Source: an uncultured Acidimicrobiaceae bacterium (GTDB taxonomy: Bacteria > Actinomycetota > Acidimicrobiia > Acidimicrobiales > Bog-793). Taken from it: a DNA stretch of 64,000 nucleotides. Positions 2,142-18,659 of the stretch are shown one piece after another. The notes under the pieces are model-generated. The model worked only from the letters and a program-made list of their open reading frames with translations. It did no database searches and was not told the origin of the DNA. The translations under genes were made by a program, and so were the position numbers. Within the stretch, counting starts at the first letter, position 1; each line of letters opens with the position of its first letter. The stretch is from the NCBI GenBank assembly GCA_963719125.1, contig CAVRAT010000015.1:77782-141781 (forward strand), written 5' to 3'.

Positions 2142-3038
2142 TCATGGGAACCAGACCCGCTGGCGCAGCGATTCCTCAAGCCGTCCCTCGAGATGTCCGG
2201 CCCACCAGGCAAAGCTCCATTGCCAGTGATCCCCGCCACGTAATGCTTCGGTAAGCATCCAGCGGACATAGCCAACAAACTCACCCAAGCCTCGTCGCGG
2301 CTGACCAAGATCACGATAACGCATATACAGCCATACGAAAGCACGCCCATAGCCGCGAGCTTTGCGGAAGTTGCCCCAGGCGTCCGGCGGGCGCCGGAAG
2401 TGAAGTATCGCGTCGGGGGCAAGGCCGATTGTGATACCGAGGAGCTGAGCACGCCACGTGAAGTCCGCGTCCTCGCCAATCAGAAGATCGGTGGCGAACT
2501 CGCCGATGCGTTTGCAAGCGGATGACCGGATCCCTATCAGTGCTCCCGGAACATAGATGCGGAATCCCAACAGAAGGACGAGACGGTCGGCAGGCGCGAT
2601 CTCCGCCCTGGCCCATACCGGATTGAGCCGCTTCGTATCGATGCTCGCACTCACTAGCTCGTATTTCTCAAGCGCTCGCGCCATCGCCTCGATATACCCG
2701 TCACCTACCTCGTCGTCGGCATCCACGAGAACCAGTAGCTCACCCCGCGCTACGGCGATGCCTGCATTGAGGGCATATGACTTGCCGCGCCGTGGCTCGG
2801 AGAGTATCTGCAGATTCGGGAGATCACCCTCGAACTCTTTCGCCGTCTCGGCTGAGCCATCGGTCGAGCCGTTGTCGACGACAATCACCTCCCACGGGAA
2901 AGAGCACTGCTGTGAGGCCAGCGCCCGCAGCTGGTGGCGTAGGTATGGCTCACCGTTCCTCACTGGCAGCACCACGCTAAGGCGGACGGGAGGAAGGGAA
3001 GAGGAAAACTCAACGTTATTATCCATTATAAACAGCAT
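2142..3038 (-). CDS. Family 2 glycosyltransferase
   Basis: LSVVLPVRNGEPYL..VIVVDNGSTDGS..LVLVDADDEV: a typical GT2 N-terminal GT-A fold with a DxD motif. Confidence 0.85.
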   Translation of the reverse strand: MLFIMDNNVEFSSSLPPVRLSVVLPVRNGEPYLRHQLRALASQQCSFPWEVIVVDNGSTDGSAETAKEFEGDLPNLQILSEPRRGKSYALNAGIAVARGELLVLVDADDEVGDGYIEAMARALEKYELVSASIDTKRLNPVWARAEIAPADRLVLLLGFRIYVPGALIGIRSSACKRIGEFATDLLIGEDADFTWRAQLLGITIGLAPDAILHFRRPPDAWGNFRKARGYGRAFVWLYMRYRDLGQPRRGLGEFVGYVRWMLTEALRGGDHWQWSFAWWAGHLEGRLEESLRQRVWFP

Positions 3039-3212: not shown

Positions 3213-3217
3213 GCCTT
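3213..3217. repeat. Left copy of 5-bp target site duplication (GCCTT) of the IS21-family element
   Basis: GCCTT lies immediately outside the left terminus. The same pentamer lies immediately outside the right terminus (16157-16161). Confidence 0.6.
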
Positions 3218-3270
3218 TGTCGCTTGCCAGTCCCAAGGGACCATTCCGTTGCCAGAAGCATGGGACCACC
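3218..3270. repeat. IS21-family left terminal repeat block (2 copies of TTGCCAG..CATGGGACCACC-like motif)
   Basis: 3218-3244 reads TGTCGCTTGCCAGTCCCAAGGGACCAT and 3249-3270 reads TTGCCAGAAGCATGGGACCACC. These are the reverse complement of the repeats at 16071-16156. Confidence 0.8.
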
Positions 3271-3323
3271 TCGCGCCCCACAACGACCGGCTGGCGTGAT
3301 GATCCCGGCAGCCGGTCGGCTTG

Positions 3324-3788
3324 TCAAGCGCGCCGTTGTCGGCGCGTCGGCGAAGTCTGCGTTCGGTCCGCTCCGATGGCCGGCTTTTCGTTCTGACGGT
3401 AGGACTCGCCTTCTATGACGAGCTCCCAGGCGGCGCTCTTCAGCCGGTCGACTGCGGACTGGGCTAACAGCGGATCGGCCATGAAGCCCAGCCATTCGCT
3501 TGGGTCACGGTTCGAGGTCAGCACCGTTGCTGCGCAGTGATGTCTTTCGACGCAGATCTCATAAATGTCGGCCGTCTCGACCGAATCGAGGTGCTGGAGC
3601 GCGAAGTCGTCGATCAGGAGGAGATCGACGCCGATGAGCTTTCGCATCTCGGCGTCGTAGGTCGCGTCGAGACGTGCCGCCTTCAATCTCTTGAGCAGGC
3701 GGTCGGCCCGTTCGAAGTGCACCCCGACGCGTCGCCGGCAGGCGATGTGGCCGAGTGCGGTGGCGAAGAAGGTCTTCCCGACGCCAGG
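3324..3788 (-). pseudogene. istB: istB (IS21 helper ATPase), C-terminal fragment from the Walker A motif onward
   Basis: ..(S)PGVGKTFFATALG..LLLIDDFALQ..TSNRDPSEW..DRL.. are typical IstB/AAA motifs. N-terminal homology is lost upstream of GVGKT. Confidence 0.85.
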
Positions 3789-3836
3789 CGAGACAGCGAC
3801 AGACTGCAACATCTTCGGCGGTTGTTGCCTTGCGAG

Positions 3837-4106
3837 GTGCGAGTCACCTCCGCTGTGCACCCGCTGTTTGGGCGTCTGGTTCCGGCGACCGGTTTCAAAC
3901 GCCGCGAGGGTGTCCTGCTGCTGGTGGTGATCCTGCCGGACGGCTCGCCGGGCACGATTCCGGCCGACGCGACGAACGCGTTGGGAGAGCCACCAGTCGA
4001 AGTCGGCACGTCGGTGCTCTCAGTGGAGGGAGTACGTCGACTCCAGGCGCTGATCAGCTCGCTGGAGCCCCGACGATCCCGCTCTCGACGCCAAAGACGC
4101 AAATAG
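3837..4106 (+). CDS. DUF5372-like small protein (putative accessory protein of the LSR element)
   Basis: GTG at 3837. VHPLFGRL..ILPDGSPGTIPADATN..VLSVEGVRRLQALISSL resembles the DUF5372 ORF at 23371-23706 (HPFRPWSGREF..GVKHSLPLSWTDA..FRVDDLIVLADLV). Same position upstream of an LSR gene. Confidence 0.5.
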   Translation: MRVTSAVHPLFGRLVPATGFKRREGVLLLVVILPDGSPGTIPADATNALGEPPVEVGTSVLSVEGVRRLQALISSLEPRRSRSRRQRRK

Positions 4107-4206
4107 GCTCGCCTGACCCTGTACGCGCCAACGAACCGGGAGGTGAGCCTCTTTGCGAAGGCTCAGAATAGCCGCGCCCACTCAGCTGACCCTGGTCATA
4201 CCCGGG

Positions 4207-4341
4207 ATGGCTCCAACCTCGCAGCAATGTTGGTCGTTGCTGCCAGATACCAACCAAGCAGCGGTGCTCTCGCTGCTCGCCCGGATGATCGCCCGTGGCG
4301 TAGTTCTCGAGGAAGAGGGAGCTGCTGATGACGATCGTTGA
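4207..4341 (+). CDS. Possible small ORF overlapping the recombinase start
   Basis: ATG at 4207. ..WSLLPDTNQAAVLSLLARMIARGVV.. ends 14 nt into the recombinase gene. An analogous small ORF sits at 24415-24618 at the second LSR locus. Weak support. Confidence 0.25.
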   Translation: MAPTSQQCWSLLPDTNQAAVLSLLARMIARGVVLEEEGAADDDR

Positions 4342-6559
4342 GTCCTCCTCCAAGGTGAGCGCCAGTCACCTCGGTCGTGACGCCTACGTATACGTACGTC
4401 AGTCGACCCTCACTCAGGTGCGCGAGCACACCGAGAGCCTTGAGCGCCAGTACGAGCTCGCATTTCGCGCCCAGGCCCTTGGGTGGGCACCCCGTCAAGT
4501 GATCGTGATCGACGACGACCTCGGTCGTTCGGGCGCCAACGCGTCAGCACGGGAAGGGTTCAAGAACCTTGTCGCCCATGTCGGACTCGCCCGTGTCGGG
4601 ATCATCTTCGGGATAGAGGTGTCACGCCTAGCCCGCAACAACGCCGACTGGTATCAGCTGTTGGACCTCTGTGCCGTGACCGACACCCTCATCGCTGACG
4701 GGGACGGCATCTATCATCCGGCCGACTTCAACGACCGGCTCGTACTTGGGCTCAAAGGCACGATGTCGGAGGCGGAGCTGCATCTCATCCGCCATCGCCT
4801 GACCGCCGGGCTTCGACACAAGGCTGCCAAAGGCGAGCTGCGTCAAGGTGTGCCGGTCGGGTTCGTCTATGACGAGGCAGATCGGGTCGTCCTCGACCCC
4901 GACGAAGCGGTCATCGAGGCGATCGCAACGGTGTTCCGTCGTTTTGACGAGCTCGGGTCAGCGCGCCAGGTGATGTTGTCGATGCAAGGAGACGGTCTTC
5001 TCATTCCTCGCCGGCCGACCGGAGCCAGGCGGATCTCCTTCGCGACGGCAACATATCCGGCGATCCACGATTTCTTGACCAACCCGAACTACGCCGGTGC
5101 GTTCGTGTTCGGCCGAACCAGGACTGAGAAGCGCCTCGACGCTGAAGGGCGCTTAGTCGCTCGCGCACGGTTCCTGCCACGGGACGAATGGGCAGTCCTG
5201 ATTCCCGACCATCACCCCGGCTTTGTGTCCTGGGAGCGTTACGAGCAGATCCAAGACCAATTGCGGGCAAACTGGCGGGCCCCTCGTGGACATGGCGGCG
5301 GTGCGGTGCGAGAAGGCACGGCCTTGTTGCAAGGCCGACTTCGCTGTGGGCGCTGTGGGCGGATGATGCAGACCGGCTACTCAGGCGCCCAGGGCAACTG
5401 TCCCAGGTACGTCTGCGGGCGAGCACGCCAGCTCTATGGCAGCGAATCGATGTGCCAGAGCTTCGGAGGTCGAAAACTCGAAGCCCGCGTCCTCGACGAG
5501 GTGTTCGCTGTGCTCGAGCCCGCCGCGCTCGCGGCCACAGCTCTGGCGCTAAACGACGCTGAGTCCGCACATCGCCAGCGGCTGCACGCCTTTGAACTCG
5601 CGGTGGAGCGAGCACGATTCGAGGCAGAGCGCGCACATCGTCAGTTCGACGCTGTCGAACCGGAGAACCGCCTTGTGGGCCGAACTCTGGAACACGCCTT
5701 CGAGGAGGCGCTCAGCGCCCAACGTCATGCCGAAGCCGACTTGGCAACTCAGCGTGCCCGTCAGCCCACGCGTCTGAACGACGACGAACTGGCTTGGCTG
5801 ACTCGGGCGGGGGCGGATCTGCGCGCAGTGTTCCACGCATCGACAACCACTTGGCGGGAGCGCAAGCAGCTTCTGCGGGCCATCATCGCCGAGGTCGTCG
5901 TCGCTTGTCGCGGAGAAGACCATCAGGCCGATGTCACGATCGTCTGGGAAGGTGGCGCCTCCACGAGCTTCGTCCACGAGCTCAACAAACGTGGCGGCCA
6001 CTACCGAGCAACCGACGAGGACACCGTCGAGCTCGTTCGTCGCCTTGCTCAGCGTTATGACGACAGGACGATCGCGGCCGTGTTGTCCAAGCAGGGACGT
6101 CGGACCGGAACCGGTCTTACATTCACGAAGACGAGAGTCGCCAGTCTGCGCTTTTCGAGAGGCATCCCGGCCTTCCAGCCAAAGCTGGATGTCACAGCAT
6201 CGGACCATGATGTCGAGGTGGTCTCGATCACCAAGGCCGAGCAGATCCTCAAAGTCAACCGGACCACGATCTATCGCTGGATGCGCGAAGGCTTCATCGA
6301 AGGCGAGCAACTCACCTGCGACGGACCATGGCACATTCGCATCAACGACGAGGTTCGCAAGCGAATCGTGCCCGAGGTGCCCGAAGGCTGGCTCAATCTC
6401 GATCAAGCAGCCCGAGCCCTTGGGATCGCCCGCCAGACCGTGTTGCACAAGGTCCAACGCGGTGAGCTCAAGGCAGTCCACGTCAACCGCGGGAAGAGAA
6501 AAGGCCTGCGTATCCAGGTCGAATCCCCGGTCGCTGGACTGTTCGACACACCGTCATGA
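4328..6559 (+). CDS. Large serine recombinase (resolvase domain + recombinase domain + zinc ribbon + coiled coil + two C-terminal HTH modules)
   Basis: AYVYVRQSTLTQ (catalytic Ser), ..VSRLARNNADW.., LRCGRCGRMM..CPRYVC (zinc ribbon). The C-terminus has TIYRWMREG and TVLHKVQRGEL, which are excisionase/MerR-like HTHs. Confidence 0.9.
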   Translation: MTIVESSSKVSASHLGRDAYVYVRQSTLTQVREHTESLERQYELAFRAQALGWAPRQVIVIDDDLGRSGANASAREGFKNLVAHVGLARVGIIFGIEVSRLARNNADWYQLLDLCAVTDTLIADGDGIYHPADFNDRLVLGLKGTMSEAELHLIRHRLTAGLRHKAAKGELRQGVPVGFVYDEADRVVLDPDEAVIEAIATVFRRFDELGSARQVMLSMQGDGLLIPRRPTGARRISFATATYPAIHDFLTNPNYAGAFVFGRTRTEKRLDAEGRLVARARFLPRDEWAVLIPDHHPGFVSWERYEQIQDQLRANWRAPRGHGGGAVREGTALLQGRLRCGRCGRMMQTGYSGAQGNCPRYVCGRARQLYGSESMCQSFGGRKLEARVLDEVFAVLEPAALAATALALNDAESAHRQRLHAFELAVERARFEAERAHRQFDAVEPENRLVGRTLEHAFEEALSAQRHAEADLATQRARQPTRLNDDELAWLTRAGADLRAVFHASTTTWRERKQLLRAIIAEVVVACRGEDHQADVTIVWEGGASTSFVHELNKRGGHYRATDEDTVELVRRLAQRYDDRTIAAVLSKQGRRTGTGLTFTKTRVASLRFSRGIPAFQPKLDVTASDHDVEVVSITKAEQILKVNRTTIYRWMREGFIEGEQLTCDGPWHIRINDEVRKRIVPEVPEGWLNLDQAARALGIARQTVLHKVQRGELKAVHVNRGKRKGLRIQVESPVAGLFDTPS

Positions 6560-6587
6560 AGGGAGCGCGCAGTGTCAACCACATTCG

Positions 6588-6929
6588 ACTGGGCCCAAGA
6601 ATAAAGGCGTTGCGCGCTTGGTCGACAAAGCGCAGCGACACGAGCTCTGACCACACCGCCCGGTCGTAGGTGATCTTGGCGGTGTCGTCCCAGGCCTCGA
6701 GTGTCATCGTCGGGTCCAGCGTGGCCGCCCGAGCACGGCGACCGGCCGAGTCGCCGTCACGGCGCTGCACCTCGTCGGAGAAGAGCTGCTCCAAGAACTC
6801 CATGTGGGTGAGCTCGTGGCTGCGAGCGAGCGCCAGGCGCTCGGGCAAGGTGTCGAGGAGGCGGCCGAGCTTCAGTGATCTCATGAGCGACTTGAGCTCT
6901 GGAGAGACGCTCGGTGTGGGCGGCGTCAT
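6588..6929 (-). pseudogene. istB: istB N-terminal fragment
   Basis: ..LKLGRLLDTLPERLALARSHELTHMEFLEQLFSDEVQRRD..LEAWDD..SLRFVDQARNAFILGPS then homology stops. The ATG at 6929 overlaps the istA stop (ATGA), as in IS21 operons. Confidence 0.85.
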
Positions 6930-7403
6930 CGTCCCGCCTCCTTTGTCGTCGCGAACTCCGACGGGTCACGGGAAAAGCGCCCCTGTATGACGACGAGATG
7001 GGCAGGACTGGCCTCTTGTCCGAGGTCCTCGCGAGCGCGTTCGAGCATGCGGCTCACGAGGTTCACGTCGATCGCCTCGGCATCAAGTGCCCGGCGACAG
7101 GCCAGCTCGACGCGGCTCGGGCCCCACTTTTTCACGAGGCCCAAGAGCCGGTAGACCTGGCGCATCTTGGTCCACGGCAAAGGCGTGTCCAACAGCGCCT
7201 CGGCGTAGCGCCCGATCGCCTCGCCGTGCTGGGCCGCCAGGCGCCTCAACGCGTCGACGTCTCGTGTGGCGTAGATCTCCTTGCCGGTCGGGTAGTCCGC
7301 CGGGTCGGTCGAGCGCTGACCCGGGGCTTTTCGCGGATGGACCTTTATGAGCTCTCCGCGGAAGTAGAACTTCACCGTCTTTGAGTCACGCCTGGCCTTT
7401 AAG
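6926..7403 (-). pseudogene. istA: istA (IS21 transposase), C-terminal fragment
   Basis: ..KARRDSKTVKFYFRGELIKVHPR..LPWTKMRQVYRLLGLVKKWG..ACRRAL.. is a typical IstA C-terminus. It begins abruptly at the IS1634-type insertion. Confidence 0.85.
7398..7403. repeat. Left copy of 6-bp TSD (TTTAAG) of the IS1634-family element
   Basis: TTTAAG directly abuts both IRs (second copy 11427-11432). Removing one copy plus the IS restores istA in frame. Confidence 0.7.
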
Positions 7404-7478
7404 CGGAAGTTACGTCACCATGAAAGGGCATTGAGTCCTTCACGAGGGGAAATGCTGAGATCTCGACGGCTTTCCTGT

Positions 7479-8313
7479 CTACAGGAGGCGGAGGGGGACG
7501 TTTGCGCCGATGAGCTCGAAGGCCCGTCGCTGGACCTCGGTTAGCTGGGCGAGTTGCTCGAAGGTCTGATCTGTGCCCGGCACCGTACAGGTGTTGCGGG
7601 TGAGGGTCCCGAGATGGTCGAGGAGTCCCTGGAAGCTCTGCACGGGAAGCCCCTCCTCATTGCGCTTTCTTGCTGCCTTGCGGGCTGCAGAGGCCGAGCG
7701 TTCCGCTTTTGCCACCGGGTCGTCGCGAAACGGTGGTGCCTCGTCGGCGAAAGTGAGCGGGGCAAGGGCCCTGCGCAGGTGCCAGACGAGATGAGCAGCG
7801 AGCAGGCAGAGCAAGGCATGGGCGCGCACCCGGTCGGCGAGGCGGTGGCGGATGGGCCGGATCTCGATGTCGAGGGACTTCATGGAACGAAAGTCCCTTT
7901 CGATGCCGGCGAGCGACTTGTAGCTGCGCACGACGTCGGCCGCAGAGAGCCGCTTCGGCGCACAGCTCGTCCGCAGTACATAGATGCCGTCTAAGGCTGC
8001 CTCAGCGGCGATCGCCTCTTGTCTTCTCGAGAAGGAGAAGCTGCCCTCTTCGATGAACAGCTCGAAGTGCTTGGCCATCTTGTAGCGGTTGACGACCCGC
8101 CCCAGGCGAAGCCCGATCTTGGCCCGGTCCGAGAGGCGGCCCGCCACAACGGCGTCTTTTACCTTTGCGAGCTCGAGCTCGGTCGCAGACAAGAGCGCTT
8201 CGCGCTTTCTCGCCCGCTCGGTCGCAAGAGCCGGGTTGCGACAGCACACGAGGCGCTCGCCGGGGTAGTCCGGGTGGGTGATCTCGGCGAAGTTCACCTC
8301 GTCGAACAAAGAC
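7479..8313 (-). pseudogene. IS1634-family transposase, C-terminal fragment
   Basis: SLFDEVNFAEITHPDYPGERLVCCRNP..YVLRTS..VVRSYKSLAGIERDFRSMKS..IRPIRHRL.DRVRAH..LC: a typical DDE IS1634/IS4 C-terminal region. Confidence 0.8.
8306..8313. repeat. Left copy of 8-bp TSD (ACAAAGAC) of the ISL3 element
   Basis: ACAAAGAC abuts both IRs (second copy 10394-10401). 8 bp is the usual ISL3 duplication size. Confidence 0.8.
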
Positions 8314-8398
8314 GGCTCTCCTGACTCTTCCGTGGGTGGGAAGGTCGAACAGGTGTGCGATGTGAGTCCGACACGCGATTGTCGAGCAAGATGGGACG

Positions 8399-9040
8399 GT
8401 GGAGAACACCGCCTCGCGCTGGGAGCCTGAGGACGACGACGAGTACGAGTCGGCGAGGGCCGAGCTGAAGGAGCGCTTTGCAACCTGGGCCGCGAACGCG
8501 GGTGTCGCGATCGATCACGATGTGCCCGAGGGTCTGCTCCACTACAAGTGGGCATACGTCGATGGCCATCTCACCCGTTGGACGCGTCGCGACCTGAGCG
8601 AGATCTATCTCGAGCTCTACCCGGCCAAGGTCATGGCCGATCCCGACGAACTCGACGAGGTCCTCGCCGAGGCGAGGGCGTTTCTCACCTTTCTCTCTGC
8701 GACCGGACTGCTCGAGGAGGAGAGCGAGTCTGCCGAGGTCCTCATCGACCACCTCGACCAGATCGCAGGGCGATTCCGGGCGAACATGGCCGATCAGTCG
8801 CGCTACAGCTTTGGCAAGCGCCTGTGGACCGAGGCCGCAGCCGAAGGCGTACGGCCCGACGACCCCGCTGCGGTCGAGGCCTTCATGGCGCGCTTTAACG
8901 CCCGGCCCCGAGCCGAGCGGGACGCGATCCTCGGAGACGGTGTGAAGCCGGGGAGCCGCCGCGCACAGACGGGCCGGTTCACTCCTCCGGGAACCCCGCC
9001 CGGACCCGGTTCAGGAAAGCGGCGCAAGCGCCGGAGATGA
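8399..9040 (+). CDS. Hypothetical acidic protein with basic C-terminal tail (passenger gene of the ISL3 element)
   Basis: 213-aa ORF with high GC3 and protein-like composition. It lies inside the IS between the left IR and the 3' end of the transposase gene (convergent, 30-nt overlap). No family recognised. Confidence 0.55.
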   Translation: MENTASRWEPEDDDEYESARAELKERFATWAANAGVAIDHDVPEGLLHYKWAYVDGHLTRWTRRDLSEIYLELYPAKVMADPDELDEVLAEARAFLTFLSATGLLEEESESAEVLIDHLDQIAGRFRANMADQSRYSFGKRLWTEAAAEGVRPDDPAAVEAFMARFNARPRAERDAILGDGVKPGSRRAQTGRFTPPGTPPGPGSGKRRKRRR

Positions 9041-10279
9041 ACGGCCGGGCAGCGGGGGGCAGTAGCCGCCGCGGTCCAAGAGTGCGAGGGCGATCAGGTG
9101 CTCGGGATCGCGGAACCCGAACGCCATGCGGTGGAGCACGCGCAGCTTCGTGTTCGTCGACTCGACGAGCGCGTTCGAGACCTTGTGCAGCATCGCCGCC
9201 TCGATGCCCGGGAGGTGGCGGCGGATCTTCCGGCCGAGCTCGACGAACGCGGTGATGCGGCAACGCTGTGCCCAGGCGAGCCACTCGTCGAGCATCGTGA
9301 GCGAAAGCACGCCCTTTCGCCTGATCGCGAGACGGAGCTGCTCTTTCATCAGGTAGGCCCGATAGAGGGGCGAGTTCGTCTTCGCGATGGTCGCGAGCTT
9401 CCCCCGCTGGCGACGCGTCAGGTCCTCTGGGTTCTTCCAGAGGGCGAAACGCGCCCCCTTCAGCTCGCGCGCGTGCTCGGTCATGCCGGATCGGCGAGCG
9501 GAGTTCCAAACGTCGCGTCGCACCTCGTCGAGGGCGTCGGTCGCCCACTGAACGACATGAAACGCGTCGATGCATAGCGTCGCGTTCAAGCAGCGCTCTC
9601 GCACGACATCCGCGATCCACTCCGCTCCGTCCGCGGAGACGACGGTGATCCCGGCACAGCGTTCTTCGCCGACAAGGTCGAAGAAGCCCCGGAGCGTCTT
9701 CTTGTCCCGACCGACCGCCGCCCAGACGAGGCGACCCGAATCGTGATCCACCACCACCGTCAAGTACCGGTGGCGGCGCTTGTAGCTGATCTCGTCGATG
9801 CCGATGCGGCGCAGACCACAGAAGGGGTCGTGCGCCGCGCGTCCATCCGCGACGACGCGGGCGATGACCGAGCCGACCGTGCGCCAGGCGATGCGCATCA
9901 AGTCAGAGACAGCGGACTTCGGGGTGTGGGTGACGAGCCAGGCGACCTGGTCGTCGAAGTGCCGGGTGTGGCCCGCGCCGTGCCGCGCCCAGGGGACCTG
10001 GGCGACCGTCGGGCCGTGGGCGGGGCAGTTCACTCGCGGCGAGTCCGCCTCCAGGTAGCACTGGACGGTCCCGAGGTCGAGCGCTCGCCATCGTCGACGA
10101 CCCTCGCCCTGGTCATAGCCGGGAGCGCGCACCCCGCAGCGCCCACAACGACGCTTTGTCGACTTGCGCGGCCGGACGTGCGCGACCACGGCGTTCAGCT
10201 CCTCGTCGACCTCGACCGACTCGATCACCGTCGCCTTGTCGACACCGACCATCCGCCGCCACACATCGGCACCGAACAA
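9011..10279 (-). CDS. ISL3-family transposase
   Basis: zf-ISL3 signature ..RRCGRCG..GYD..RRWRALDLG.., then ..IGIDEISYKRRHRYLTVVVD.. and a DDE_Tnp_ISL3-like C-terminus. Confidence 0.9.
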   Translation of the reverse strand: MFGADVWRRMVGVDKATVIESVEVDEELNAVVAHVRPRKSTKRRCGRCGVRAPGYDQGEGRRRWRALDLGTVQCYLEADSPRVNCPAHGPTVAQVPWARHGAGHTRHFDDQVAWLVTHTPKSAVSDLMRIAWRTVGSVIARVVADGRAAHDPFCGLRRIGIDEISYKRRHRYLTVVVDHDSGRLVWAAVGRDKKTLRGFFDLVGEERCAGITVVSADGAEWIADVVRERCLNATLCIDAFHVVQWATDALDEVRRDVWNSARRSGMTEHARELKGARFALWKNPEDLTRRQRGKLATIAKTNSPLYRAYLMKEQLRLAIRRKGVLSLTMLDEWLAWAQRCRITAFVELGRKIRRHLPGIEAAMLHKVSNALVESTNTKLRVLHRMAFGFRDPEHLIALALLDRGGYCPPLPGRSSPALAPLS

Positions 10280-10393
10280 TGCCGTTCTCCTCGCCTCGTT
10301 TTCACGTCGCCGAACGGAGGGAGAACGTAGCCACGAGGTGGCGTTGCGTGCCTTTCAGCTGCTCAGAATGCCCACGGATCGGACACAAGAGCC

Positions 10394-10401
10394 ACAAAGA
10401 C
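10394..10401. repeat. Right copy of 8-bp TSD (ACAAAGAC) of the ISL3 element
   Basis: Identical to 8306-8313. Joining across it restores ..GPLQLSLFDEVNF.. in frame. Confidence 0.8.
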
Positions 10402-11303
10402 AGCTGTAACGGGCCGTTGTCTTGGGCGAGAGCTCTTATCTGCGGGGCACGCAGGGCGCTCACCCAGTCGAGCCCTCCGAGGCTTTTCAGTTCCTCGATG
10501 CGGGCGTTGGTGATCATGCCCCGGTCGCCGACGACGACGATCTCTTTTAGGGAAAAACGCTCCAGCACGGCCTTTAGCACGGCGGAGAAGGACTTCGGAT
10601 CGGCGGTGTTGCCTTCGAAGACCTCGATCGCAAGCGGGAGCCCGTCGCTATTGGCGATCACCCCGTACTCGATCTGGCGCTTTCCCCGCTTGCCGTCCCG
10701 GTTGTGGCCGAATGCTGCGAGCTCGTTGTGGGAGCCCTCGACATAAGAAGAGCTGAGGTCATAGCAAAGAATCGAGCCGTCGCCCAGATGCGAGGCGACG
10801 AGGGAGCCTTCGATGGCGTCCTTCTTCTCTAACAGCCAGTCCATCGCCTCGTAGCACTCATCAGAAGAGAGCCGTTCCAAGGCGAGGTCCACTGACAGGG
10901 TCGTGTTCAAGACCGCCCTCGTGTAGGCGAGCTTTGAGTCCGGCTCGATCACTTGGCCGACGAGCAGGGCGAGCGCTACGTCACGCTGGCGGCAAGGCGC
11001 GCCGAAAAGCTCATAGATGCCCGTCTTCTTCGCCATCTCGAAGACCAAGGCGGCACCACCGTGAAAAAGCGAGCGCTTGATGGCGATCGCCTCGCCGGCA
11101 GGCACGAACCTGTCGCCCGCAAGGCCACGGCGGACGAGCTCTAGGACCTCTTCGGGCAGGTGGCTCAAATTGGCGAGGGTCTCGTTGCGCACCTTGCCAT
11201 TTTCCCTATAGGAGCGCCGGAGCAGCTGCGTTTCGTAGAGCTTGCCTTTGTACTGTCGACGGATCGTGGCCACGTGCATCGCCCCACCACGCCGCACTGT
11301 CAT
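10394..11303 (-). pseudogene. IS1634-family transposase, N-terminal fragment
   Basis: MHVATIRRQYKGKLYETQLLRRSYRENGKVRNETLANL..CYDLSSSYVEG..GHNRDGKRGKRQIEYG..VVGDRGM. The true start is possibly the ATG at 11279. Confidence 0.8.
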
Positions 11304-11426
11304 GGCATAACTCTACCTCTAACCGGTCATGATTACCAGCATCTTCTGTCTACGTCTGGAAGGAGAAACAGAGCTGGACTCGCTGCTCAGGAGACAGAAA
11401 GCTCGTTAGAGCGGACTTAACTTCCG

Positions 11427-11432
11427 TTTAAG
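11427..11432. repeat. Right copy of 6-bp TSD (TTTAAG) of the IS1634-family element
   Basis: Identical to 7398-7403 and occupies the same codon phase in both istA fragments. Confidence 0.7.
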
Positions 11433-11874
11433 CGGCGACCGATGAACTGGTGTGGGATCGAGTAGAGCGCCTTGTCCACCTCGACGTGGAAGTCACGGTG
11501 CACCTTCGGCTCTGACCAGCGCGGGATGTCGAACGGTGTGCCCGGAAGAGCCAGGAGCTTGCCGAGTTCCTCGAGCCTGAACTCCTCGGCAGGCCGGCAC
11601 TGGGTCGTGCCGTGGATGCGCATGCCGGCGGTCTGTTTGCACCATGTCTCGGCACGTTCCCGGCAGTCGGTGAGGTCGACGAAGCTCTCACCGGCGAAGA
11701 AGTTCCTCCGCACGTAGGGCACGACGCGTTCCACCCGAGGCTTGTCGGTCGGCGTGGCGACGCGGGCGGCGTCGATCACAAAGCCCCGTGCCTGCGCGTA
11801 CTCGAGGAACGTGTCGTTGAAGCGAGGGGCGGTGTTCTCCGCCTCGATGACGATCGAGCTCATGTTGTCCGGAT
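11427..11874 (-). pseudogene. istA: istA middle fragment (end of the integrase core)
   Basis: PDNMSSIVIEAENTAPRFNDTFLEYAQARGFVIDAARV..DKPRVER..RIHGTT..YSIPHQFIGRRL matches the IstA catalytic-core to C-terminal transition. Confidence 0.8.
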
Positions 11875-11900
11875 TCTGTGCCCGACCGCGTTATGTGGCC
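11875..11900. repeat. RIT left terminal inverted repeat (26 bp)
   Basis: TCTGTGCCCGACCGCGTTATGTGGCC is the exact reverse complement of 15301-15326. Confidence 0.9.
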
Positions 11901-11958
11901 GATGACGACGATGTCCATCGATGACGCGGACTCTCTGCCGTCACCGGCCACATAACGG

Positions 11959-12969
11959 TCAGAGCGACGAGAGCCAATCGAGTAGTGATTCGTCCGAGCG
12001 CCAGACAGGACGAGAACGGGACCCCAGCGAAGAACCGGGAGGCTCCGTGTTCCGCAGCGCCTCGATCTTCGCTCGGGTGTTGATCTCGGCGTAGCGGTTT
12101 GTCGTGGTGAGATCGGCGTGTCCGAGCCAACCTCGGATGACGTTCACCTCCACACCGGCCTCGAGGAGATGAACCGCCGCGGTGTGGCGGAACAGGTGAG
12201 GGCTCACCCGGCGCTCGGAGCGAGCGTCGTCGAGGTGACCGACATGCCGCCGCACGATCTTGTAGATTCCGAAGCGCGTGAGTGGCGCACCGGTCGCCGA
12301 GGTGAACACGGGAGCGTCTGCCGCGCACGGCCTATTCGACGTGATGAGCAGCTGGTCGAGTAGAACCGTGGTCTCGCGCCAAAGCGGGCAGGTTCGCCAC
12401 TTGTCACCCTTGCCGTGGAGCCGAACAAGTCCTGCCTCACCAAGATCGACGTGGCCGACGCGGAGATCGGCGACCTCCTGCACCCGTGCCCCAGTGTTGT
12501 AGAGGAAGAGCAGCAGGCCGCGGTCCCGGAGAGCGAGTCGACCGGATTGCGGGAGGTCGCGAAACAGCGCCTCGATCTCGTCCCGCTCGAGGTAGTGGGT
12601 TTCAGCCGGCGCAGCACGCTTCGCTGGGATGGCCGCGACCCGCTGACAGATCCCGAGCATCTCCGGTTCCCGACTGGCGATGTACTCGAACAGCGTGTGC
12701 AGCACGGCCAGTCGCTGGTTGCGGGTGCGGACGTGATTGTGCCGATCTCCTTCCAGGTAGCGGAGGAACCCAAGGCAGCTCTCGAAGTTCAGGTCCTCGA
12801 GGCGGAGCTTGGTGATCTTCACCTTCTTGTCGCTGGCCACGAAGCACAGGAAGAGCCGGATGGTGTCCCGGTAGCTGCGCACAGTCGCCGGACGGAGTCC
12901 CTTCACCGCGATGAGATGATCGACGAAGAAGGAGTGGACGACCGGTCCGAGCGGTGTCGACCCGCTCAT
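11959..12969 (-). CDS. ritC: Tyrosine recombinase, third gene of the trio
   Basis: N-terminal SAM-like domain plus catalytic ..TGARVQEV.. / HLFRHTAAVHLL / LGHADLTTTNRYA (R..HxxR..H..Y). Confidence 0.9.
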   Translation of the reverse strand: MSGSTPLGPVVHSFFVDHLIAVKGLRPATVRSYRDTIRLFLCFVASDKKVKITKLRLEDLNFESCLGFLRYLEGDRHNHVRTRNQRLAVLHTLFEYIASREPEMLGICQRVAAIPAKRAAPAETHYLERDEIEALFRDLPQSGRLALRDRGLLLFLYNTGARVQEVADLRVGHVDLGEAGLVRLHGKGDKWRTCPLWRETTVLLDQLLITSNRPCAADAPVFTSATGAPLTRFGIYKIVRRHVGHLDDARSERRVSPHLFRHTAAVHLLEAGVEVNVIRGWLGHADLTTTNRYAEINTRAKIEALRNTEPPGSSLGSRSRPVWRSDESLLDWLSSL

Positions 12970-13919
12970 CGTCTGGCCTCACTCCACACCGGTTCGGTGA
13001 AGGCCTCGAAGCGCCTGTTCGCCTCGTCGATCAGCTGCGGCGTGATCGTGAGATAGACGGCGGTCGAGTCAGGGCTGACGTGGCCCATTAAGGTCGAGAG
13101 CCGGTACAGGCGGCTCTGCGGGTCCACCCCCTCCCGATACCAGCGCAACAGGCAGCCCACAGCAAAGGAATGACGGAGGCTGTGGAGCACGGGCGGGGAC
13201 ACGCCGTCGGGAACCGGAAGGCCGAGCGTCATGACGAGGCGGTGGAAGACCTGGCTCGCGCTCTGGGGATGGACGCTTCGCCGTCCGTCGAAGCTGAACA
13301 GCGGGTCGTCGGCGGTCCCATGGCGCCGTTCGACCTGGCAGGCGAGAACCTCACCGACGCGCGGACCGTGGGGAACGAGGCGGCTCTTGCCGAACTTGCC
13401 GCCGCGCACGACGAGCAGCTGACGGTCCGCGTCGACGTCGCTGATGAGGAGACTGCATGCCTCGCCGGCTCGCAGCCCGAGGCCGTAGCAGAGGGCGAAG
13501 ATGGCGTGGTAGGTGGACCCGCGGCCTCTCGCCCGCGCGTTGTCTGGAAGTGCCGCTGCGGCTTTGAGCAGCCGTCGCGCCTGGATGGTGTCGAAGAGGA
13601 ACGGCACACGCTGATCGGTCTCCCGTCGGCGGGTCCTTCGCAGCGGGGAGGCCACTAGGCGCTGTTGGCTGACCGCCCAGTCGAGGAAGCAGCCGAGGAC
13701 GTTAACGAGATGGTTGAAGCTGCGCGCTCGGGTCCGCGGTCGCGACGCGACGAAAACGTCGAGGAAGGCGGAGGTGAGCTCGTCCAGCTCGGTCACGCCG
13801 TGCTGATCGCAAAAGGCGAGAAACAGGTGAAGCGTCGCCTCCTCGGTCATGTACTTGCGACCGAGGGCGCGCTTGTGGGCAAGGAAGTCGCTGACGGTGG
13901 AGGCGAGCGCGGCGCTCAT
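12966..13919 (-). CDS. ritB: Tyrosine recombinase, second gene of the trio
   Basis: ..GLRAGEAC.. / HSLRHSFAV / MGHVSPDSTAVYL. ATGA overlaps with both neighbours. Confidence 0.9.
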   Translation of the reverse strand: MSAALASTVSDFLAHKRALGRKYMTEEATLHLFLAFCDQHGVTELDELTSAFLDVFVASRPRTRARSFNHLVNVLGCFLDWAVSQQRLVASPLRRTRRRETDQRVPFLFDTIQARRLLKAAAALPDNARARGRGSTYHAIFALCYGLGLRAGEACSLLISDVDADRQLLVVRGGKFGKSRLVPHGPRVGEVLACQVERRHGTADDPLFSFDGRRSVHPQSASQVFHRLVMTLGLPVPDGVSPPVLHSLRHSFAVGCLLRWYREGVDPQSRLYRLSTLMGHVSPDSTAVYLTITPQLIDEANRRFEAFTEPVWSEARR

Positions 13920-15184
13920 GCGAGCACCGCCTCGCCGTCACCGAGCGCGACCTCGCGGAGGCGCTCGATGGCGACCTTGGCGTAAACCTCGGTGGAGCGC
14001 GCCGAGCGATGCCCGATGAAGTCGCCGATCGTCTTGAGCGGGAAGTCCGCGTCGACGAGGCGCTGGACGGCCGAGTGACGCAGCGTGTGCGACCCCGGCC
14101 GGGGAACCTCGACGCCGGCACGCAGCAGGTAGGCGCGGCACAGCGACGACACCGCGGCCGCCCCGATCGGGCGCCGGGGCGCGACGGCGCGGAAGAAGAC
14201 GTGGCGATCGGACGTCGTCGGACGGCCATGCCGGAGGTAGTCGAGGATCGCCTCGCCGACCACGAGCGAGAGCGGGAACGCCGTGGAGTGACCGGCCTTG
14301 CGCTCGGGGACCCGGAGTCGGTCGTTCTTCCAGTCGATGTCGTCCAAACTGAGTGCCGCGACCTCCCGACCCCGCAGCCCGTAGGTGACGAGCAGGAGCA
14401 AGATCGCGTAGTCCCGCCGTCCCGCCTGGGTGCGACGGTCAACGCTGGCGAGCACCCGGTTGACGTCTTCCCAGGAGATCGAGCGGGGCACGTTCGAGAG
14501 CCGATACACCTGGGGCCACCCAACGGCGTTGGCGAGATCGGCATCGAGAACACCCTCGCGATGGGCGTAGCGCAAGAACACCCGGAGCACCCCGGCGCTG
14601 TCACGAACGGTGCTCTTCGCCAGCCCCGAGCCGGCGCGTTCGACGATGTAGGCGCTGAGGATCACTGGCGAAAGCTCGCCGATCGACTGGAGGCCGATCC
14701 GAGCGAGGTAGGCCTCGAAGCGGTCGAGGTGGTGGCGGTAGCCGTAGATCGAGGCGGGGCGCAGCCCGCGCTCTTCGACCAGGTAGTCGAAGAAGCCAGG
14801 AACGACGTCGACGAAGGGCTGGGGGTGAGGGCTCCGACCGGTTGGCTCGAAGCCGGGGAGCACCACCGAGAGCATCTGCTCGATCGGACCTCTCACCTCC
14901 TTCTCCATCGGTCTTGTTGAGCGGGTCCGTCGGTGATGGTCGGCGACGCGGTTGGTGATGAACGCGTCGACGTGGGCAGGCAACTCGCCGATAGTGTCCG
15001 CCCCACGCGCCCGACCGAACTCAGCAAAGGCGAAGACGATCGGCACCCGGCGCCAGACGCTCTTCGTGCTGAAGCCTTCTTCGACGAGCCAGGTGACGTA
15101 GGCCTCGATCTCGGCCGCGATCCACGAACCGCGCAGGCGATCGATAGTCGCCGGCTTGATGAAGTACTCCTCCAACATGGACAA
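13916..15184 (-). CDS. ritA: Tyrosine recombinase, first gene of the trio
   Basis: 422 aa. ..GLRGREV.. / HTLRHSAVQ / IGHRSARSTEVYA. The long N-terminal extension is typical of the first RIT gene. Confidence 0.9.
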   Translation of the reverse strand: MSMLEEYFIKPATIDRLRGSWIAAEIEAYVTWLVEEGFSTKSVWRRVPIVFAFAEFGRARGADTIGELPAHVDAFITNRVADHHRRTRSTRPMEKEVRGPIEQMLSVVLPGFEPTGRSPHPQPFVDVVPGFFDYLVEERGLRPASIYGYRHHLDRFEAYLARIGLQSIGELSPVILSAYIVERAGSGLAKSTVRDSAGVLRVFLRYAHREGVLDADLANAVGWPQVYRLSNVPRSISWEDVNRVLASVDRRTQAGRRDYAILLLLVTYGLRGREVAALSLDDIDWKNDRLRVPERKAGHSTAFPLSLVVGEAILDYLRHGRPTTSDRHVFFRAVAPRRPIGAAAVSSLCRAYLLRAGVEVPRPGSHTLRHSAVQRLVDADFPLKTIGDFIGHRSARSTEVYAKVAIERLREVALGDGEAVLA

Positions 15185-15300
15185 CCTCCTGTCTCTTTGT
15201 GATCTGAAACAGGAGCCTGTTGGAAACCACCGGCGTTATGTGGCGCAGAGTGACTGGAGCGGGTCGTTCACTAGGAAGCTGTCAGAGCGAGTGCCGGCGC

Positions 15301-15326
15301 GGCCACATAACGCGGTCGGGCACAGA
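15301..15326. repeat. RIT right terminal inverted repeat (26 bp)
   Basis: GGCCACATAACGCGGTCGGGCACAGA is the exact reverse complement of 11875-11900. Confidence 0.9.
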
Positions 15327-16000
15327 ACTGCGAAAATGTTCCGCGGAACATTTTCGGGGATGACGACCGGAAAGATCCCGCCGAAGAACCACCAGGCGGC
15401 CTCGAAGCCTTTGATCACCTCTTTGGTGGTCTGGAGAAACGTCGGCCACACGAACTGATGGCGGCTGTAGCACGCCGTGAAGATGAGCCCCCAGCACACA
15501 CGGCGATGCTCGCCGTCGGCCACGAGCCCGAGACGGCCGAAGTCGACCTGGACCTCGATACCAGGCGGCGGGTCGTCGACCCGCACCGTCGTCTTGCGCC
15601 TGCCAGCACCACAGCGCTCGACGGCAAAGCGCGCCAAGGTGCGGTGCGGGACCTCGATGCCGCGGCGACCAAGCAGTATCCCGATCTTGACGACGGTGAG
15701 GCCGTCGTCCACCCACTTGGTGATCTCGTCTTCCTGGGCGAGCAGAACCCGCCAAGCCTCTCCGTGGCCGTCGGGCCGGTGCGGGCGAACCCGTTCCACC
15801 ATCTGGCCGATCAGCTTGTCGGTGAGCTGCTCCTCGCCACCTGAGCGGTCGAGCCCGAGCTCGATCGCAGCTGAGATGTAGCGCCTCGCCGTCTTTCGGT
15901 CGATGCCGATCCCGTGAGCGATCGGGCGCTCACCCTCACCTTTCAGCCAGCGCCGAAGTGCCTCTTTGATCTGGACCACCGATACCTCCCTGAACGCCAT
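15327..16000 (-). pseudogene. istA: istA N-terminal fragment (HTH domains and start of the integrase core)
   Basis: MAFREVSVVQIKEALRRW..GIGIDRKTARRYI..VQVDFG..FTACYSRHQFV..FGGIFPVVIPEN, then homology is replaced by RIT end sequence. Confidence 0.85.
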
Positions 16001-16070
16001 CAGGCCTCCTCGGAAACGGCTTCGGAGGCCCAGCCGAATATCTCGTCGGCCGGGGGTGGTGGATGCTCAG

Positions 16071-16156
16071 GGTGGTCCCATGACTGGCAACGGAGGTGGT
16101 CCCATGCCGCTGGCAAAACTGGCGGCTAGGTGGTCCCATGTCGCTGGCAAACGACA
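16071..16156. repeat. IS21-family right terminal repeat block (3 direct copies of GGTGGTCCCATGnnGCTGGCAA)
   Basis: Copies at 16071-16090, 16095-16116 and 16129-16150. The terminus ..AACGACA ends at 16156. Confidence 0.8.
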
Positions 16157-16161
16157 GCCTT
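16157..16161. repeat. Right copy of 5-bp TSD (GCCTT) of the IS21-family element
   Basis: Matches 3213-3217. Confidence 0.6.
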
Positions 16162-16214
16162 TAGTTGCCCAGGCCTTGATGCTCGCCTTGTGGTGTGTTG
16201 TGCGAGCAATCGAA

Positions 16215-16445
16215 CTATTGGTCAGGCGACGCGCTCGTACTCATGAATGACGCCACCAAGGACGTTGTAGCAGCGAACCGTCCCAGCTCGTTGTGGCTTG
16301 CTGCGGGGCATCGGCGCGAGGAGCTTGAGCCCTCGATGTGGTCGGACCGTGTTTTAGGGCCGGACGTATTCGGCGACCACCGACTCCAGATGACCGCGGG
16401 AGACGACGAGGAGATGATCAAGGCAGTCCTCTCGAACGGTCCTCA
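16215..16445 (-). pseudogene. Integrase-core (rve-type) transposase, C-terminal remnant with an in-frame stop
   Basis: Minus-strand translation ..CLDHLLVVSRGHLESVVAEYVRP*NTVRPHRGL..RCYNVLGGVIHEYERVA resembles the conserved C-terminus of actinobacterial rve integrases. Confidence 0.5.
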
Positions 16446-16930
16446 CCCACCGCGCGGCGAAAGCGTTCGCCGAAGTCGACAGATTGGCCGGTTAACCAGA
16501 GGGTCGCGGCAAGCAGGAACGGCTCAACCGCTACATAAGAGAGGCGTTCTTGTCCGAGGCGACCCATCAGGGCATCTCCTCGCTCGAGGAGCTGAACGAC
16601 CTGTTCTTCGCCTGGCCGAACAGGTGGCCAACCGCCGCGTGCACGCAGCGACGAATAGACGCCGATTTCCCGCTTCGAGCGGACCGGCCCGCACCGCCAG
16701 GTTGATCCCGACCGGCTGAGAGAGGCCTTCAGCTGGTCAGTGACGAGGCGGGCTTCGTAGCAGCGATCATAGACGAGGATGCAGCCGGTCGGCGGGCAGG
16801 GATCTGCCCCGGCGAGGATCGGGCGGGCTGACAGACGAGCTGGCTGGACCCAGCTGACGCCCACGACGAGGCCGACATCGGCAAGCACTTTGTTGCGCCT
16901 CATCGTACGATTCATCGAGTGGCCGTTAGC
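16446..16930 (+). pseudogene. Mu-like/rve DDE transposase remnant, multiply frameshifted
   Basis: Pieces in different frames: ..GRGKQERLNRYIREAFL..GISSLEELNDLFFAW / AEQVANRRVHAATN / DPDRLREAFSWSVTRR. No intact ORF. Confidence 0.4.
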
Positions 16931-17035
16931 GGGAGGGGGACAGGCCCCCCTCCCGGCCTCCTCCCGGCGCGACAGCACTGAACGTTGAGGTAGTCGGGCC
17001 GGCAGAGCCGTCCCTCATGCGCTATCGCGTCGCGC

Positions 17036-18119
17036 ATGACAAGCGTTGTGAACATCAACGACGTGCTCGACGGTCACGTCAGTCTGGAGATCGACTGCAT
17101 CGACCGCCTGCTGCTCAACGCCTACGTCCCCAATCTGCAAGTAAGTGGTCAGGTGGTCACCTTCCTCACCGGACACCTCGGCTTCCCGGTCCCGTCACCG
17201 GCGCTGCTCGAGAAGATCGGCAACCGTTTTCGTCGAGAGGTGAAGGCCTTTGCCGCCGAGCACAACGTGCCGGTCCTCACCTTGAAAAAGCCCGATCGGA
17301 CGCGATGGGACGACCGCAAGCTCGCCCATGTCCGTCCCTACCTCGAAAGGGCCGAGGCCGAGCACCGCACCGGCGTCGTCGCCATCGTCCAGGCCCAGGA
17401 GTTCCAGTGGGTGTTCAGCGCGAAGAACCGTTCGAGCACGCCGGGGGGTTGTGAGCTTCGACTTCGTGAAAGAAGAACGCCGGGTCGGGATCTACTACTT
17501 CTACGTTCTCGATGCCGAGTTCGGACCCGGCTTCATCAAGATCTGCACGTACTTCCCCTATCCGTCCAAGGTCTGGTTGAACGGTCACGAGTGGGCCAAG
17601 CGTCAGGCTCGGCGCGAGGGCCTCAGTTTCGGCGAGCTCGCGAACGGCTTCTCCTCGTGCGAGGACCCTCAAGCCCTCCAGGCGATCTGTGACCGGCTCG
17701 GCCCGCGTGACATCGAAGACTTCATTACCCGGTGGACCGCTGTCATCCCACTCCCGGTCACCGCCGAGGACAAGAACGCCGGATACTTCTTCGAGCTCTC
17801 CATGCGCCAGGTCGAGGTCTCTCGCACGCTCGTCTTCGACGACCCTCGCCGAGCCAGAGGTTTCTTCGAGTCGCTCGTCACCGACAACATCGGCATCGGG
17901 CGCCCCCACGAGGTCCACGCCGTGTTCGGGCGCGACCGGCGTGGCCGCACCACTGCTCAGCCCTTCGCGACCAGGGTCTTCAGCCCCGGGACCGAAGTGA
18001 AGATGGACTTTCGCTACAAGAACAGTCGCGTCAAGCAGTATCTGAAGGAAGGGAGGGCACTACGTATCGAGACCGTCATCAACAAGCCCGCGGACATCGG
18101 CGTCCTCGCCCGGCTCGGG
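17036..18119 (+). pseudogene. Conserved actinobacterial hypothetical protein (possibly IS-associated), frameshifted and 3'-truncated
   Basis: MTSVVNINDVLDGHVSLEIDCIDRLLLNAYVPNLQV..FSAKNR.. continues in another frame after a G6 run (17443-17448) as ..FDFVKEERRVGIYYFYVLD..SRVKQYLKEGRALRIETVINKP. Homology ends near 18117. Confidence 0.6.
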
Positions 18120-18555
18120 CCGATTGTGGGTGTCCCGTTTCCTGTTGCCTTTCGGCCGCCGGCATCGGCTTCTCGGGTCATCCGCTGCCCACCGGGGGAT
18201 TGGGCCTTCCTTGCGGTCGGCTTACCGGGGCACGTCACCGCGCCCGGACCCCGTCGGGATTACCACGTTCCACACGCACGAGATGCGACCGGGGTGGGTG
18301 CCTCCTGTATCTCGAGGGCGGCGGTGCTCACCCGGTTGACAAAAAATCCCCGACCGGCGCCTGCCGTTTTACAGCGGCCAGCCCCTCCACCCCGCCTACC
18401 ACATGCCATCAGGCGAGGCTCACGCATAACAAGACATCAACGGAGGTTCACGCAATTCACCCGTCCGGTCTGCCCCTTGCCCGTGACCCCCAGATGGAAC
18501 AGGGGTCCTTCGGCTTTCCCTTGGGCTTCGCACCCCGCTGTTACCAGCGACGCAC
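18120..18555 (-). ncRNA. Probable group II intron 5' fragment (domains I-III), truncated before the IEP ORF
   Basis: The minus strand starts with GTGCG (18555-18551), followed by a GC-rich stretch with many short complementary segments (..GGTAACAGCGGGGTGCGAAGCC..CCGGTAAGCCGACCGCAAGGAAGGC..GAAAGGCAACAGGAAACGGGACAC). No coding potential. Identified by eye only. Confidence 0.45.
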
Positions 18556-18659
18556 GCCAAGGGCGGGGCCAGGCCTTCGAGCACGGGCCTGGGACTACGC
18601 CTCCGGCATAGGCCGGGCCTCCGATCTGCGAGCCCGCTCGCTACGTGCGACCTCGTGTC

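Follow-up and report, generated by a model that had tools for sequence, protein, structure and literature searches.

In a 64,000-nucleotide stretch of contig CAVRAT010000015.1 from an uncultured Acidimicrobiaceae bacterium (hereafter the window, meaning the whole stretch at its full length), positions 3213-16161 hold an IS21-family insertion sequence (IS) that has been interrupted by several other mobile elements. We think it likely, with a probability of roughly 0.85, that this nest was built by one IS21 insertion, followed by site-specific homing of two recombinase-encoding elements, one moved by a large serine recombinase (LSR) and the other a RIT element with three tyrosine recombinases, and by ordinary transposition of an IS1634-family and an ISL3-family IS. 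The element boundaries, the duplications, the collinear restoration of the interrupted genes, the intact donor copies and the repeated occurrence of insertions at the same codons of many independent targets can all be read directly from the sequences. Because the LSR and RIT lineages insert at the same codons of many IS21-family genes in many genomes, both are, as judged by comparing sequences, site-specific parasites of IS21, which serves as their specific target and not as a neutral dump.

Reconstruction of the IS21-family host

Listing of open reading frames (ORFs) and repeat finding in 3213-16161 identified two istB fragments and three istA fragments, all on the minus strand and interspersed with genes for a 743-aa LSR, a split IS1634-type transposase, an ISL3 transposase and three tyrosine recombinases (Table 1). 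Three primary insertions break the 2,622-bp IS21 skeleton, namely the LSR element, the IS1634-family element (with ISL3 inside it) and the RIT element. An earlier note, made from the sequence alone, had described istA in three and istB in two collinear minus-strand pieces, which the ORF listing and alignment to intact relatives confirmed; its family assignments and boundaries also held when all coordinates were rechecked, with Pfam or NCBIfam support for each family.

The outer termini, TGTCGCTTGCCAG (at 3218) and TGTCGTTTGCCAG (ending at 16156), are of the TG..CA type (TGTCG..CGACA), and a subterminal TTGCCAG..ATGGGACCA motif is present in 2-3 copies at each end. The multi-copy subterminal repeats and the GCCTT on both sides are as previously proposed, and the earlier description as a whole is correct almost to the base. 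Identical ends occur in two intact relatives from same-genus genomes, where the 5-bp target-site duplications (TSDs) are GCACT and GCCCT. The istB start overlaps the istA stop (ATGA at 6926-6929). With overlapping istA-istB genes, TG..CA ends, subterminal repeats and a short TSD all present, the outer element belongs to the IS21 family.

Four pieces of the window (3217-3785, 6586-7401, 11439-11873 and 15348-16158) aligned collinearly by blastn, at 77-83% nucleotide identity, with intact relatives of 2,621 bp such as L002 and L003. Deleting 7404-11432 and 11869-15354 yields an open IstA of 519 aa, and deleting 3790-6591 yields an open IstB of 267 aa reading ILGPPGVGKT; restoration of the istB Walker A motif by a deletion of about 2802 bp had been anticipated, and the residue that had been left as either S or P is P, not S. 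Rebuilt IstA is about 80% identical over residues 1-518 to the intact proteins of five same-genus genomes. When both rebuilt proteins were aligned pairwise with those of L002, to which they are about 80% identical, no gap fell at any junction (PDNMSS, GRRLKARRDSKTVK, ILGP.GVGKT), so that the in-silico excision suggested as a check returned collinear, in-frame proteins. IstA scored 160.6 bits on NF033546 (cut-off 160); IstB scored 191.1 bits on NF038214, just below the cut-off of 200, and Pfam IstB_IS21 passes on both of its halves.

These excisions bear on the concern that separate IS copies were collapsed or chimerically joined during assembly. The genome is a metagenome-assembled genome (MAG) in 34 contigs, and its IS1634 and ISL3 elements are multi-copy. 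However, each junction has its partner (identical TSDs or matching halves of an attachment, att, site), the RIT and LSR elements are each single-copy in their own genome, and the excisions restore four open frames collinear with intact homologs, which is not expected from a chimeric join. We regard such an artefact as extremely improbable.

Several observations concern the surroundings of the IS21 element and its other copies. Its right flank (16162-18700) is made up of fragments with copies at many positions in related genomes, and its landing site is older mobile-element debris adjoining a glycosyltransferase gene (2142-3038). Outside the window, the same genome holds a second IS21 relative (C34:1-797) with 83% nucleotide identity to 15360-16156; its contig breaks off no more than about 5 bp from the istA D-N site, and the assembly may have broken there at another RIT or palindrome. 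Among ordinary genes of another genome lies an orphan istA fragment of 400 bp (L018; G012:C5, 7330-7732), which is 93.6% identical to 11435-11838 and thereby closer to the window than any intact IS21 found. We considered whether this fragment ends at the IS1634 junction; it ends 8 bp off with no IS1634 alongside, and we take the proximity as coincidence.

An LSR element in the Walker A codons of istB

The LSR matches PF00239, PF07508 and PF13408, and an N-terminal motif, YVRQSTLTQ, was read from its sequence. Relatives were collected by searching 300 genomes of the order and by a GTDB scan (60-83% protein identity), and the best 80 loci were compared. These have common element ends, GACAGCGACAGACTGC... 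and ...GCGCAGTGTCAACCAC on the plus strand, and nearly all of them have one flank encoding h-h-h-G-(P/D)-x and an opposite flank encoding G-(T/V)-G-K-(T/S). Where the downstream flank was long enough to test, Pfam IstB_IS21 began at the Walker A position in 49 of 53 cases. Measured against the first flank of the set, the IstB flanks reach identities of only 17-87%, and we therefore treat the insertions as independent.

Relatives at about 60-65% identity lie in the Walker A motif of other, non-IstB P-loop genes, and the clade seems, from these sequences, to target P-loop coding DNA more generally. Such targets were seen at L043, L051, L115, L128 and L130, where, for example, VVIGAAG is followed across the insertion by TGKTYALDA, or GVITG(D/E)V by GAGKS (matching AAA_22). 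At two further loci (L062 and L103) the istB halves upstream and downstream of the LSR element are of different IstB types (e.g., ..VVLLGDS with GVGKTFLATALGHIAC), which suggests possible LSR-mediated exchange between occupied IS21 copies.

The crossover was located by comparing two occupied with two unoccupied IS21 copies of one sister genome. There attB reads ..ATCGGG-CC-GCCCGGTGTGGG, attL ..ATCGGG-CC-GGTCGGAATTGG and attR ..GCTGTC-CC-GCCCGGTGTGGG, and the CC(G) common to all three places the crossover of that genome in the Pro codon. This comparison also shows that the attL bases resembling 'P-V-G' belong to the element, whose attP would mimic its target; the predicted attP is ..GCAGTCTGTCGCTGTC-(C/T)C-CAGTCGAATGTGGTTGACAC... 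A different reading, with a GG crossover, an ancestral Val and a +1 frameshift, had been considered from the likeness of attL ..CCCAGTCG.. to the CCAGTCGG of relatives. It was ruled out, as the occupied and unoccupied IS21 copies assign those bases to the P' arm of the element, and the 2,802-bp excision (GPPG) stands.

The small ORF beside the LSR gene keeps an open frame in 66 related elements. It has no Pfam or NCBIfam match even at E=10, and a 'DUF5372-like' label that had been considered for it is therefore unsupported.

A RIT element at the second catalytic aspartate of istA

The insertion between the 5' and middle istA pieces has the features of the RIT family: an overlapping recombinase trio with ritA longest (each gene pair overlapping by 4 bp, ATGA), a length of about 3.5 kb (3,454 bp from inverted repeat, IR, to IR) and terminal IRs of about 28-34 bp with a palindrome. 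Excising 11869-15354 restores VVIPDNMSS, which places the insertion at the Asp-Asn codons, that is, at the second DDE aspartate of istA. Read in the istA sense, the near junction is ..GTCATC-CCCCG followed by AAAATGTTCCGCGGAACATTTT-CGCAG-IR and the far junction is IR'-TCCGG followed by ACAACATGAGC.., while intact relatives read GTCGTAATTCCCGACAACATGTCC at this point.

The 22-bp palindrome, present once in its own genome, was found in 21 stretches of GTDB, whose sources are Acidimicrobiia, Pseudonocardiales, Streptosporangiaceae, Gemmatimonadales, Eisenbacteria and a delta-proteobacterial MAG. Almost all of these 21 place it between a RIT IR with the GTTATGTGGCC motif and a transposase gene ending ..FFGG.P...V.(D); 19 of 20 palindrome flanks match the IS21 transposase model NF033546 and are cut at the same codon (..GG.P...V.(D)). 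Identity of the IstA flanks to the window piece spans 18-79%. One same-genus genome has an IS21 of 82% identity in which a RIT, 83% identical to that of the window, interrupts the same codon but is inverted. From independent insertions in such diverse IS21 genes we infer that the element moves as a unit through its three recombinases.

The 5 bp between IR and palindrome match the 5 target bp at 82 of 105 positions, a value reached by none of 10,000 shuffles. Five RIT elements are complete; in two of them (L038 and L039) the far-junction 5 bp equal the target 5 bp, and in the other three they differ from the palindrome-junction 5 bp. The excised form may accordingly be pictured with a symmetric attachment site, IR'-5-palindrome-5-IR, and with a crossover in the 5-6 bp by the palindrome. 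A match in this overlap would be preferred and a coupling sequence carried over when it is mismatched, as in Tn916, Tn554 and SE elements (PMC10214605); for RIT elements, such carry-over is suggested by the five complete copies.

Some loci bear traces of rearrangement. At L014, which is the same locus as L030 (G003:C76, 95-3601), an inverted RIT 83% identical to that of the window has the palindrome at both ends and lies between two different istA genes, each represented by its 5' half. At L028, L034 and L013 (the last in a same-genus genome, G007:C5, around 253.3 kb, with an imperfect palindrome) a RIT is missing, and the palindrome directly connects the 5' halves of two distinct istA genes head to head. 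These three resemble scars left by recombination between two IS21 copies that each carried a RIT.

The shared codons could instead reflect common descent, if IS21::RIT and IS21::LSR composites had each formed once and then spread as units, and some genomes do hold several near-identical occupied copies (L058/L059; L063/L121). However, the targets are very diverse, as the ranges of flank identity given above for IstA and IstB make plain, element and target types are mixed, RIT orientation varies between loci, and unoccupied copies of the same IS21 are found beside occupied ones. Inheritance of ready-made composites is thus highly improbable, and we retain repeated, site-specific insertion as the explanation.

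IS1634 and ISL3 guests and the order of insertion

The IS1634 transposase (578 aa, taken from an intact copy) scored 305.7 bits on NF033559 (cut-off 100) and the ISL3 transposase 269.6 bits on NF033550 (cut-off 180). The former element combines its IS1634-type DDE transposase with terminal IRs (CGGAAGTTA) and a TSD in the 5-6-bp range of the family, and the latter has the transposase (zinc ribbon, helix-turn-helix and DDE domains), IRs starting GGCTCT and 8-bp TSD of the ISL3 family. Two intact 1,935-bp IS1634 copies on one contig of the same genome (C18:131064-132998 and C18:3857-5792) are 99.8-100% identical to the window copy and keep the unbroken ISL3 target GAACAAAGACAGCTG, coding ..GPLQLSLFDEVNF... 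As had been claimed, deleting 8314-10393 with one ACAAAGAC restores the IS1634 frame, giving the same unbroken sequence as these copies, and deleting 7404-11426 with one TTTAAG restores ..IGRRLKARRDSKTVKFY.. in istA in frame, with gap-free alignment to intact IstA. Another IS1634 copy is flanked by CCTAGG, as against TTTAAG in the window. Two further ISL3 copies (C7 and C16), 99.8% identical to that of the window, have other 8-bp TSDs (CGAAAAAG and CTCATTTT), so that the three copies have three different ones. Both insertions look like ordinary transposition into tolerated, locally A+T-rich sites; as in other IS-in-IS nests, there are classic TSDs and intact donor copies, and nothing in this part is unusual. 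A 213-aa ORF within the ISL3 element overlaps the end of the transposase gene, and its stretch is 99.8% identical at the nucleotide level in the other two copies.

Intact copies of IS1634 and ISL3 elsewhere in the genome, with the ISL3 target unoccupied, prove the order IS21, IS1634, ISL3 and so uphold the chronology given in the earlier note. The nesting is three levels deep (IS21 > IS1634 > ISL3) and comprises five elements, where four levels had been counted; the chronology covers IS21 before its guests and ISL3 after IS1634. Every gene of the guests is open, the IS21 frames are without stops, and the IS1634 and ISL3 elements are nearly identical to their sibling copies; the whole pile is therefore young.

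The region had also been described as a dead IS acting as a landing pad. For IS1634 and ISL3 this description is apt, as both made ordinary TSDs and their sites, locally A+T-rich, vary from copy to copy, and the surroundings are rich in mobile-element debris. Extended to all four guests, it would mean that each arrived untargeted in an IS21 that was open to cost-free insertion. By contrast, the codons taken by the LSR and RIT elements are also those that dozens of their independent relatives occupy in divergent IS21 genes, their junctions appear to be of att type and are not TSDs, and without targeting it would be very unlikely for 2.6 kb of a 3.9-Mb genome to be struck three times. We consider a wholly passive landing pad unlikely, and prefer homing for these two elements.

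Table 1. Features of the nested IS21-family element (window positions).
Feature	Position	Strand	Remarks
IS21 TSD, left copy (GCCTT)	3213-3217		identical to 16157-16161
IS21 TSD, right copy (GCCTT)	16157-16161		identical to 3213-3217
Whole IS21-family element	3218-16156	-	12,939 bp with guests, skeleton 2,622 bp; collinear with intact relatives
istB 3' piece	3324-3789	-	Walker A GVGKT to stop; Pfam IstB_IS21 profile positions 100-235
LSR mini-element	3790-6591	+	2,802 bp including one crossover-core copy; junction in G-P-P-G codons
Small conserved ORF of LSR element	3837-4106	+	about 90 aa; VRVT..HPLFG..LPDGSPGTI..LSVEG
Large serine recombinase	4328-6559	+	743 aa; Pfam Resolvase, Recombinase, Zn_ribbon_recom; C-terminal excisionase-type helix-turn-helix (HTH_17)
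istB 5' piece	6592-6929	-	start to ..NAFILGP; Pfam IstB_IS21 profile positions 3-103
istA 3' piece	6926-7403	-	alignment to intact relatives
IS1634-family element	7404-11426	-	1,935 bp plus ISL3 guest; TSD TTTAAG at 7398-7403 and 11427-11432
ISL3-family element	8314-10393	-	2,080 bp; TSD ACAAAGAC at 8306-8313 and 10394-10401
213-aa ORF within ISL3 element	8399-9040	+	no family match
ISL3 transposase	9011-10279	-	NF033550; three Pfam ISL3 domains
istA middle piece	11433-11868	-	DNMSS.. to ..HQFIGRRL; alignment to intact relatives
RIT insertion	11869-15354	-	3,486 bp; in istA sense: 22-bp palindrome, 5 bp, IR, ritA-ritB-ritC, IR', 5 bp
RIT terminal inverted repeat	11874-11901		28 bp; perfect partner 15300-15327; GGCCACATAACG motif repeated subterminally
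Three tyrosine recombinase genes (block)	11959-15184	-	Pfam Phage_integrase in all three
ritC-like	11959-12969	-	336 aa
ritB-like	12966-13919	-	317 aa
ritA-like	13916-15184	-	422 aa
Junction palindrome AAAATGTTCCGCGGAACATTTT	15333-15354		perfect, 22 bp, on the istA-5' side; part of RIT attachment site
istA 5' piece	15355-16000	-	start to ..FGGIFPVVIP + G of Asp codon; alignment to intact relatives

A proposed model of assembly by homing

The nest would have begun with the transposition of one IS21-family element, which made the 5-bp duplication and then took three hits. The 2.8-kb LSR element would have integrated by attP x attB recombination into the Walker A coding DNA of istB, with the crossover within or beside the Pro codon of G-P-P-G. 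The RIT element would have integrated at the second catalytic Asp codons of istA (V-I-P-D-N), bringing with it the 22-bp palindrome, which would belong to a symmetric attachment site, along with 5 bp of 'coupling' sequence unlike the target. An IS1634-family IS probably transposed into the TTTAAG of istA, and ISL3 would later have entered it at ACAAAGAC. Circular intermediates, the exact cleavage positions and the carry-over of the coupling sequence from a previous site are parts of this scheme that we put forward as probable.

A number of observations weigh against it. In the window, the LSR core is CC in attL and TC in attR, and attL has one base over the canonical spacing, which may be real or a homopolymer error; in the window the cut can thus be placed only approximately, at or beside the Pro codon. 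The 5-bp segments of the window RIT differ at all three positions (CCCCG, CTGCG and TCCGG), so that heterology tolerance or later mutation is needed. To fix the RIT crossover, an unoccupied sibling of a RIT-occupied IS21 was sought in three genomes, and none was found. Finally, the search for intact copies and empty sites that the earlier note had proposed succeeded for IS1634 and ISL3, with intact copies in the genome; among 40 relatives it found no empty chromosomal site orthologous to that of the IS21 element, whose right flank is itself repetitive debris.

With less assurance than for the history of this one locus, we also judge it reasonably likely that two or more unrelated lineages of 'parasites of parasites' have IS21-family elements as their dedicated hosts, among them an LSR lineage for which the P-loop DNA of IstB would be attB and a RIT clade for which the target would be the second-Asp DNA of IstA. 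In each, an invariant protein motif would serve as a portable DNA address, and the host IS would be inactivated on arrival.

Relation to known systems

In Tn4451/Tn4453 (TnpX), Tn5397 (TndX) and systems with phage or integrative and conjugative element (ICE) serine integrases (e.g., Bxb1 and phiC31), a large serine recombinase with Resolvase, Recombinase and zinc ribbon domains is the sole mobility enzyme, and the junctions are of att type, without TSDs. The LSR element of the window resembles these in having a similar enzyme as its sole mobility gene and apparently att-type junctions. Unlike them, it is IS-sized (2.8 kb, comprising the LSR and the ORF of about 90 aa) and without cargo, its recombinase has an extra C-terminal excisionase-type helix-turn-helix, and its target is the Walker A coding DNA of another mobile element's helper gene. 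We found no published description of IS-sized LSR elements targeting istB in the searchable literature.

RIT elements were described by Van Houdt et al. 2012 (PMC3414803) in Cupriavidus metallidurans CH34, on pHG1 and elsewhere as ritABC trios of about 3.5 kb with IRs of 28-29 bp and an overlapping palindrome, one of them within the transposase gene of a Tn6049 relative in A. ferrooxidans. Their target specificity and movement are listed as not tested in a 2023 overview (PMC10214605, Table 1). The window RIT shares with the published elements its three recombinase genes with 4-bp overlaps, its length of about 3.5 kb and its 28-bp IR with palindrome, and differs from them in occupying a defined codon (that of the second DDE Asp of IS21 IstA) in common with about 20 independent loci and in having a conserved 22-bp junction palindrome with co-varying 5-bp segments. 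Like Tn916, Tn554 and SE elements (PMC10214605), RIT elements have junctions that are not simple direct duplications, and the 5 bp by one end mismatch the target as if carried over; in contrast to them, RIT elements have long IRs and a putative symmetric palindromic attachment site.

Significance

Nested ISs are routine, and what makes this locus informative, beyond a clean relative chronology of five elements, is that two different recombinase elements apparently home to catalytic-motif codons in one 2.6-kb host. If our interpretation is correct, a single IS21 copy here displays both the LSR and the RIT parasite at work, and the RIT junctions, with their symmetric palindromic site and co-varying or carried-over 5 bp, would provide the first concrete model of RIT movement. 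If confirmed, LSR and RIT elements would supply small integrases, multi-site by nature and with defined att sites, that can be put to the test. They would likewise explain many 'broken' IS21 copies in Actinomycetota genomes and would indicate that conserved protein motifs can be used by mobile elements as DNA addresses.

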